Origin: Ostrea edulis
Taxonomy: Eukaryota
Direction of reading: 5' to 3'
Length of the DNA stretch: 64,000 bases
Assembly: GCF_947568905.1 (NCBI RefSeq)
Contig: NC_079166.1
Location: forward strand, 9,300,001-9,364,000
The stretch's first letter is position 1, and every line of letters begins with the position of its first letter. The notes below the pieces were generated by a model. It did no database searches and had not been told where the DNA came from. It worked only from the letters and a program-made list of their open reading frames with translations. Below are positions 36,909-37,127 of this stretch, one piece after another. The translations under genes and the position numbers were made by a program.

Positions 36909-37127
36909 TCAAATACATAACTCCCACACACAACACCAATGCACATGTATTTTTAAAATAGGGTCCAACATTTTTTCCATTTCTCGAATCCTGCGTTGAA
37001 ATCGATATCGATCAGCGGCTACAGTCATCCAGATACTTGTCCGGTCTTCTTCGGGTAACCGATACACTTCATTATGATCCAGATTAAAAGTCACACGTTT
37101 AACTTGACGTACAACTCTCGAAGACAT
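36909..37127 (-). CDS. GADD34/ICP34.5/DP71L-like PP1 regulatory subunit, 72 aa
   Basis: True ATG at 37127. RVTF (RVxF) followed by DRTSIWMTVAADRYRFQRRI..L.PIL. Confidence 0.88.
   Translation of the reverse strand: MSSRVVRQVKRVTFNLDHNEVYRLPEEDRTSIWMTVAADRYRFQRRIREMEKMLDPILKIHVHWCCVWELCI

Follow-up and report, generated by a model that had tools for sequence, protein, structure and literature searches.

The 64,000-nt window analysed here, from Ostrea edulis, carries a Polinton/Maverick element, and by its sequence a small reverse-strand ORF of that element most probably encodes a PP1 targeting subunit that dephosphorylates eIF2-alpha. The product would dock on host protein phosphatase 1 and aim PP1 at phosphorylated eIF2-alpha, and translation would continue when activity of the element triggers the host eIF2-alpha kinases. 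The ORF appears to be an intact accessory gene of a known family in a carrier for which we found no prior report, and it would extend the GADD34-type family to integrating elements of ~20 kb, with many natural short orthologues.

Both motifs named by the sequence-only reading, KRVTF (K10-F14) and RTSIWMTVAADRYRFQRRI (R29-I47), are present in the translation of the short form. The second comprises the Arg that enters the PP1 pocket, the hinge Trp and the helix with which PPP1R15 proteins bind eIF2-alpha and G-actin. The Pfam PP1c_bdg search that had been proposed as a check placed the 72-aa form above the gathering cutoff (E 4.6e-6, 26.9 bits against 26.1), with a margin of only 0.8 bits. The claimed homology to GADD34, CReP and DP71L was further borne out by searches of the PDB: the top sequence matches were DP71L (E 3.3e-5) and PPP1R15B (E 1.2e-4), and a 12-sequence family profile recovered R15B (E 4e-17), DP71L (2e-15) and R15A (1e-9), which together made up the best eight of nine matches. 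The two-motif pattern occurs once in the six frames of the window and in none of 200 triplet shuffles of the element, whereas the RVxF-like motif alone occurs 224 times in the window. F14 and W33 are 19 residues apart, where the family leads one to expect ~18-25 residues from RVxF to the conserved Trp. The motif held as first described in its Trp and helix core but not in the Gly two residues before the Trp: the Gly of G-P-W in DP71L, R15A and R15B is Ser31 here (S-I-W), as in most relatives. The AlphaFold model has a low-confidence N-terminal part followed by a long helix from residue 32, a layout like that of PPP1R15 cores; searching BFVD for folds similar to the core returned nothing significant. 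Rfam identified no family near the gene (one match, E 0.38).

Table 1. Features of the Polinton element and of the PP1-regulator locus (positions in the window; aa, amino acids).
Feature	Position	Strand	Remark
Polinton/Maverick element, 20,184 bp	20556..40739	.	termini AGTAGT...ACTACT
Target-site duplication TACATG, 6 bp	20550-20555 and 40740-40745		perfect
Left terminal inverted repeat, 279 nt	20556..20834	+	99% complementary to 40461-40739
Element ORF	20996..24955	+	
IAP (BIR + RING)	24992..25519	+	Pfam
A32-like packaging ATPase	25560..26198	+	Pfam
rve integrase	28254-29024 of 28254..29157	+	Pfam
Chromodomain	28963-29157	+	separate frame from integrase
Major capsid protein (presumed)	31926..33329	+	no significant Pfam match
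Adenain-type maturation protease	33339..33836	+	Peptidase_C5 above cutoff
AATAAA	36890..36895	-	begins 14 nt past PP1-regulator stop
PPP1R15/DP71L-like core ORF, short form, 72 aa	36909..37127	-	ATG context ACG-ATG-T
RTSIWMTVAADRYRFQRRI, R29-I47	36987..37043	-	R29...W33...D39 R40 x R42 F43 x R45 R46 I47
RVxF PP1-docking motif KRVTF, K10-F14	37086..37100	-	
In-frame 43-codon upstream extension (long 115-aa form)	37128..37256	-	ATG context TCC-ATG-T
Helical paralogue 4, 101 aa	37091..37396	-	predicted truncated Bcl-2-like fold
Helical paralogue 3, 115 aa	37383..37730	-	TATAAA at -43
Helical paralogue 2, 117 aa	37759..38112	-	TATAAA at -42
Helical paralogue 1, 110 aa	38150..38482	-	TATAAA at -38
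Right terminal inverted repeat	40461..40739	-	

Polintons are recognized by terminal inverted repeats, AG...CT termini and a 6-bp target-site duplication. All three are present here together with genes for pPolB, an rve integrase, the ATPase and the protease, and the earlier placement of the gene in a Polinton is upheld by them. The ORF that we take, from Polinton hexons, to be the major capsid protein is 36% identical to the protease-adjacent gene of the related locus L004 (E 1e-67); neither the double jelly-roll capsid nor the penton gave a significant Pfam match, and both labels are presumptive. In three runs read depth was far higher inside the element than in its flanks, which fits a multicopy family, a depth of this kind giving no copy number. 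The integrase gene appears damaged in this copy, with core and chromodomain in different frames and the ends intact, and this copy may therefore be silent. It is nevertheless quite improbable that the ORF is an unexpressed passenger of a decaying element within an otherwise functional family. The split integrase, the missing TATA box of the ORF and the degraded copies among the related loci (L003, L005 and L006) would suit such a passenger; against it, the terminal repeats and target-site duplication are as well preserved as Table 1 indicates, the polymerase, ATPase, capsid and protease ORFs are open, and the ORF is covered with no gap by contigs from other runs (X5 at 36553-37435; X3 in two pieces).

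The contacts of this core are known from mammalian structures and mutants. In R15A, W582 is the hinge, D588, R591 and R594 (and R587) contact eIF2-alpha, and F592, R595 and, weakly, R612 contact actin (available text of PMC8500838), while R658 of R15B engages the PP1 pocket (available text of PMC10743859). Mapping from W582 (= W33) showed that R15A W582, D588, R591, F592, R594 and R595 are all retained, as W33, D39, R42, F43, R45 and R46. R29 matches R15B R658. The positions of R587 and R612 hold A38 and H63, so neither Arg is retained; DP71L has Val at the R587 position, likewise no Arg. L54 and L58 align with two leucines of DP71L LSAVL. Across the family, 60 of 62 representatives could be anchored; 53 of these retain the D, 55 have the R591 equivalent and 58 that of R595. 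By analogy with the mammalian complexes, KRVTF and R29 would bind PP1, W33 would act as the hinge, D39, R42 and R45 would face eIF2-alpha, and F43 and R46 would bind G-actin; L54 and L58 may stand for both LSAVL leucines.

A product that binds PP1 but titrates it or redirects it to another substrate, as a decoy that leaves eIF2-alpha phosphorylated, has only a slim probability. The Gly-to-Ser change, the loss of the R587 and R612 equivalents, the absence of the upstream eIF2-binding motifs of long R15A and R15B, and a close subgroup (P0018, P0020) with a variant, degenerate D-N-R-x-I-F helix would be compatible with it; yet this protein and most relatives retain the hinge Trp along with the D588, R591 and R594 equivalents, and DP71L works with only this core (PMC5346070 and bioRxiv 2025.02.28.640897, as far as their available text goes).

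We retained 62 relatives from 1.84 billion representatives (phmmer, E<=1e-3, 50% clustering), 36 of them no longer than 100 aa, and PP1c_bdg matched 50 of the 62 aligned proteins at E<=0.01. The names attached to them are uninformative ('hypothetical protein', for example). Relatives of 57-68 aa are predicted, with starts as given in the database. The 570-aa relative P0051 is probably a cellular GADD34. Among the others, P0029 appears to fuse the PP1 module to a domain that we presume to be nuclease-like, P0043 appears to fuse it to an unidentified N-terminal domain, and P0023 joins it to a 59%-identical piece of the macrodomain-like gene of the element (34910-35407, +), a gene with weak PDB matches (E 0.003-0.2). 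Among the three Atlas clusters listed, Preplasmiviricota predominate in one (a single member having a known phylum) and Nucleocytoviricota in two; the family is therefore not restricted to Polintons.

A metagenome scan yielded nine loci, reduced to eight when L008 (E 1e-4), which has no RVxF and a prokaryotic look, was dropped as spurious. Three further DNA-pattern matches (L010-L012), their frames broken by stops, were set aside as chance. The preceding gene is PC4-like in seven loci (Pfam PC4 E 7e-6 to 0.011 in the four tested); in L001, L002, L004 and L009 the gene immediately ahead of the PP1 module has a PC4-like domain and then a Cys/His cluster. In L005 the preceding gene is helical, and a RING gene resembling that of the window lies downstream. 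A Polinton protease or capsid gene adjoins four of the eight loci: an adenain protease in L002, L003, L004 and L007, and a capsid gene as well in L003, L004 and L007, the flank genes of L004 alone having been checked by search (Peptidase_C5 E 0.0067). From these contexts the gene is therefore present in at least two Polinton lineages. Scans of viral contigs with four queries (the protein itself, an alignment of the family, and the capsid genes of the window and of L004) gave no relative, and ~50 alignable residues are too few to settle the donor.

Purifying selection acts on the core. Over the 37 core codons that lie outside the overlap (26 in L006), dN/dS was 0.07-0.27 in 12 of 28 pairs, and saturation at synonymous sites affected the remaining 16; because a motif pattern was used to find the loci, pN is biased down.

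The sequence-only reading also held that the ORF track starts 43 codons too early and that the product is a minimal 72-aa protein. This was not established, the evidence going both ways, and the longer ORF does not mask the domain as had been supposed: the 115-aa form still scores 26.7 bits in Pfam (cutoff 26.1). The ATG-to-stop ORF begins at 37256, 43 codons before the short start at 37127. In favour of the short form, its start has A at -3 and the long start T, where 22 of the 23 other element ORFs have a purine. Likewise a Met lies within 20 aa of RVxF in 36 of the 49 representatives (of 62) that have both motifs, a count in which database Met may in part be GTG or TTG starts written as M. 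Against it, of the 15 closest relatives (P0002 75% and P0003 73% identical), four are short and 11 are proteins of 105-109 aa with Ile at the short-start Met and an upstream start only, and P0018, P0020, P0022 and locus L009 have no Met near RVxF.

In the window, the frame upstream of the core runs open across 70 codons of the overlapped gene (P 0.16 under synonymous permutation and 0.035 under the codon usage of the element), with two stops in 101 codons against eight, seven and seven in the three paralogues. The open frame extends over 104 codons in L001, 125 in L002, 154 in L004 and 44 in L009, with synonymous-permutation P of 0.013, 0.0015, 0 of 20,000 and 0.027, respectively; it was not significant in L006 (0.36), L007 (0.18) or L005 (7 codons), and L003 was left out as broken. 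Open frames reaching far upstream exceed the synonymous-permutation expectation, with P<0.05 in four of eight tests versus two of 20 control genes. In the last 44 codons of five PC4-type loci, a stop-creating synonymous T was found at none of 38 at-risk sites versus 22 of 109 elsewhere (Fisher P 0.001, a value that is optimistic because the 44-codon span was picked from the same data). An AUG lies 66-71 codons before the Trp in all five PC4-type loci examined, and it is precisely where the open frame of L006 and that of L009 start. Because the upstream frame is kept open, stop-creating T is avoided and this AUG recurs, a 105-116-aa form is probably real in part of the family. The extension is probably a tail that is tolerated but not essential, and would compare with the two forms, long and short, of DP71L. 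The product of this copy may well be longer than 72 residues: it is perhaps the 72-aa form only, production of the 115-aa form only is somewhat doubtful, production of both is unlikely, and a fused or spliced product is improbable.

In the window as in all eight related loci, the ORF starts in the -1 frame before the upstream gene has ended; these cases represent two lineages rather than nine independent events. Such an overlap shows why annotation overlooks these genes. In the window the overlap with helical paralogue 4 is 37 nt from the short start or 166 nt from the long start; the 43-codon extension sits in the -1 frame within the helical gene, whose stop is spelled by the V-T codons of KRVTF. 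A TATA-like box within 110 nt precedes 17 of the 23 other element ORFs and is lacking at both starts of the PP1-regulator ORF, by a pattern that was loosened after inspection. The overlapped ORFs of the element comprise four without a TATA box, all in the -1 frame, and two with one, both in +1. The AATAAA past the stop is likely the shared poly(A) signal of five co-oriented genes. With no TATA box and an ORF ending just before this shared signal, translation seems likely either to begin at an internal AUG on the mRNA of the upstream gene, through re-initiation or leaky scanning, or to use an internal start that lacks a TATA box. Leaky scanning would lead one to expect a depletion of out-of-frame AUGs upstream of the far start, and the depletion was not significant (P 0.40, 0.058 and 0.19). 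In L005 a stop closely precedes RVxF and is followed by no AUG; this locus is a dead copy or else points to another expression route. Elsewhere in the element, stop-start overlaps occur at 27499-27502, 28269-28272, 29154-29157 and 34910-34919 (ATGA three times, ATGTCGGTGA once). They link TATA-poor genes to the preceding gene, which suggests coupled termination-reinitiation across the element; a start at 29154 would also remove the sole other ORF with T at -3.

A wider proposal, which we regard as rather unlikely, is that a compact antagonist of the integrated stress response is widespread in invertebrate Polintons, is repeatedly placed in the -1 frame behind unrelated genes and would therefore be translated as ATF4 and GADD34 are, through leaky scanning or re-initiation, being switched on just when host eIF2-alpha is phosphorylated. 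It would amount to a self-regulating release of the viral brake, with a Bcl-2-like upstream gene in one lineage and a PC4-like one in another, and these "transposons" would pass through a virus-like phase that alarms eIF2-alpha kinases.

The same overlap could in principle place the module at the C-terminus of the upstream protein, through splicing or a -1 ribosomal frameshift, and hence yield a Bcl-2-like- or PC4-tethered PP1 adaptor, a reading that we consider highly improbable. It draws on the -1 overlap at every locus, on a G_TTA_AAC heptamer just before the upstream stop in the window, presumably akin to the arterivirus site, at which a shift would retain RVTF, on P0031, an apparent in-frame fusion of the helical family to the PP1 module, and on L005, which lacks a usable AUG. 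But the helix motif of P0031 is degenerate, the AAAC follows from the Lys-Arg codons anyway, and longer forms of the upstream protein were found for none of 98 candidates, which is weak evidence. Frameshifting as the main expression route was rejected, a conserved slippery heptamer and a downstream structure both being absent: no heptamer occurs in the seven PC4-type loci scanned (7/7), and no stimulatory RNA structure lies downstream in the window (z = +1.6; 192 of 200 shuffles fold as well). That the motifs arose by chance in an alternative frame with no gene, as might be thought of a short ORF overlapping another gene and of so common a motif as RVxF, is effectively refuted by the shuffles, by the family, PDB and Pfam matches and by a dN/dS well below 1.

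Four tandem helical paralogues of 101-117 aa, each with a TATA-like box of its own, lie upstream of the PP1-regulator ORF on the same strand (37091-38482). Paralogue 1 has a weak Pfam Bcl-2 match (E 0.0066, below cutoff). The model of paralogue 4 (pLDDT 87.5) is predicted to resemble a truncated viral Bcl-2: nine of the best ten VIA-align matches are of the Bcl-2 family over ~100 residues, the best with a Z of only 7.5 and rmsd 3.3, values that helical bundles commonly reach. For the paralogue fold, neither Foldseek against BFVD nor the PDB profile returned anything significant, an Atlas search with paralogue 3 gave no match, and no named relatives of the helical paralogues were found.

The closest known counterpart is ASFV DP71L (PDB 9NB9), likewise a stand-alone RVxF plus W...DRxRF..RI core, the best PDB sequence match and the best, non-significant, BFVD fold match (E 0.83). 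DP71L exists in long (184 aa) and short (70-72 aa) forms (available text of PMC5346070), much as this ORF has long and short options, and is described as the smallest of 391 known members (available text of bioRxiv 2025.02.28.640897), compared with the 57-68-aa relatives predicted here. Its F-to-W spacing is 18, compared with 19 both here and in R15B, and it has G-P-W where S-I-W is found here. Unlike DP71L, which is carried by a large cytoplasmic virus, the present gene lies in a 20-kb integrating Polinton, overlaps an upstream gene in the -1 frame and ends in a Cys/hydrophobic tail. PPP1R15A/GADD34 and PPP1R15B/CReP (PF10488; 4V0U, 4V0X, 7NZM) share the C-terminal core and contact residues, but the ORF is without their long N-terminal regions and the R612 equivalent, and its linker is shorter than in R15A and in P0051. 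Herpesvirus ICP34.5 has the PP1/eIF2-alpha core in common (BFVD rank 5, E 5.4); it is larger (222 aa in the BFVD match), and its other activities have nothing corresponding here.

Homologues of IAP and Bcl2 have been reported among adintovirus/Polinton accessory genes (Starrett et al., available text of PMC8502044), and this element too has an IAP gene and a predicted Bcl-2-like gene; no GADD34 or PP1 gene is named in the available portions of that paper's main text, Fig. S2 map labels and supplement. Within open full-text literature we found no report of a GADD34/PP1 gene in Polintons. PP1, GADD and eIF2 are absent from the available portions of bioRxiv 2024.03.25.586562, 2023.10.06.561300, 2026.10.13.758929 and 2025.04.19.649669 and of PMC11161782, and none of the matches listed combined Polinton or Maverick with PP1, eIF2, ICP34.5, PP1c_bdg or PF10488; a single unrelated virome paper mentions eIF2 and adintovirus once each. 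Oyster PERK is the subject of PMC9680061. A dedicated, selected antagonist of translation shut-off beside IAP and Bcl-2-like genes would be the toolkit of a replicating DNA virus, and it bears on the question whether the Polintons of animals are active as viruses. ASFV likewise combines genes of these three types: DP71L, A179L (a Bcl-2 homologue) and an IAP.

Several minor features were also observed. The C-terminal tail of the ORF (36909-36940, -), HVHWCCVWELCI, is Cys-rich and hydrophobic, is echoed in P0017, P0018, P0019 and P0086, and is possibly a membrane anchor. The element further encodes a Pro-rich protein with a C-terminal RING-like Cys cluster (35557-36345, -), common to L005, and a two-knuckle CCHC protein (39449-40273, +). 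The host flank contains an IBR-domain ORF (46266-46850) and a satellite array of a 165-bp tandem repeat (57488-60709), which presumably resembles an oyster satellite.
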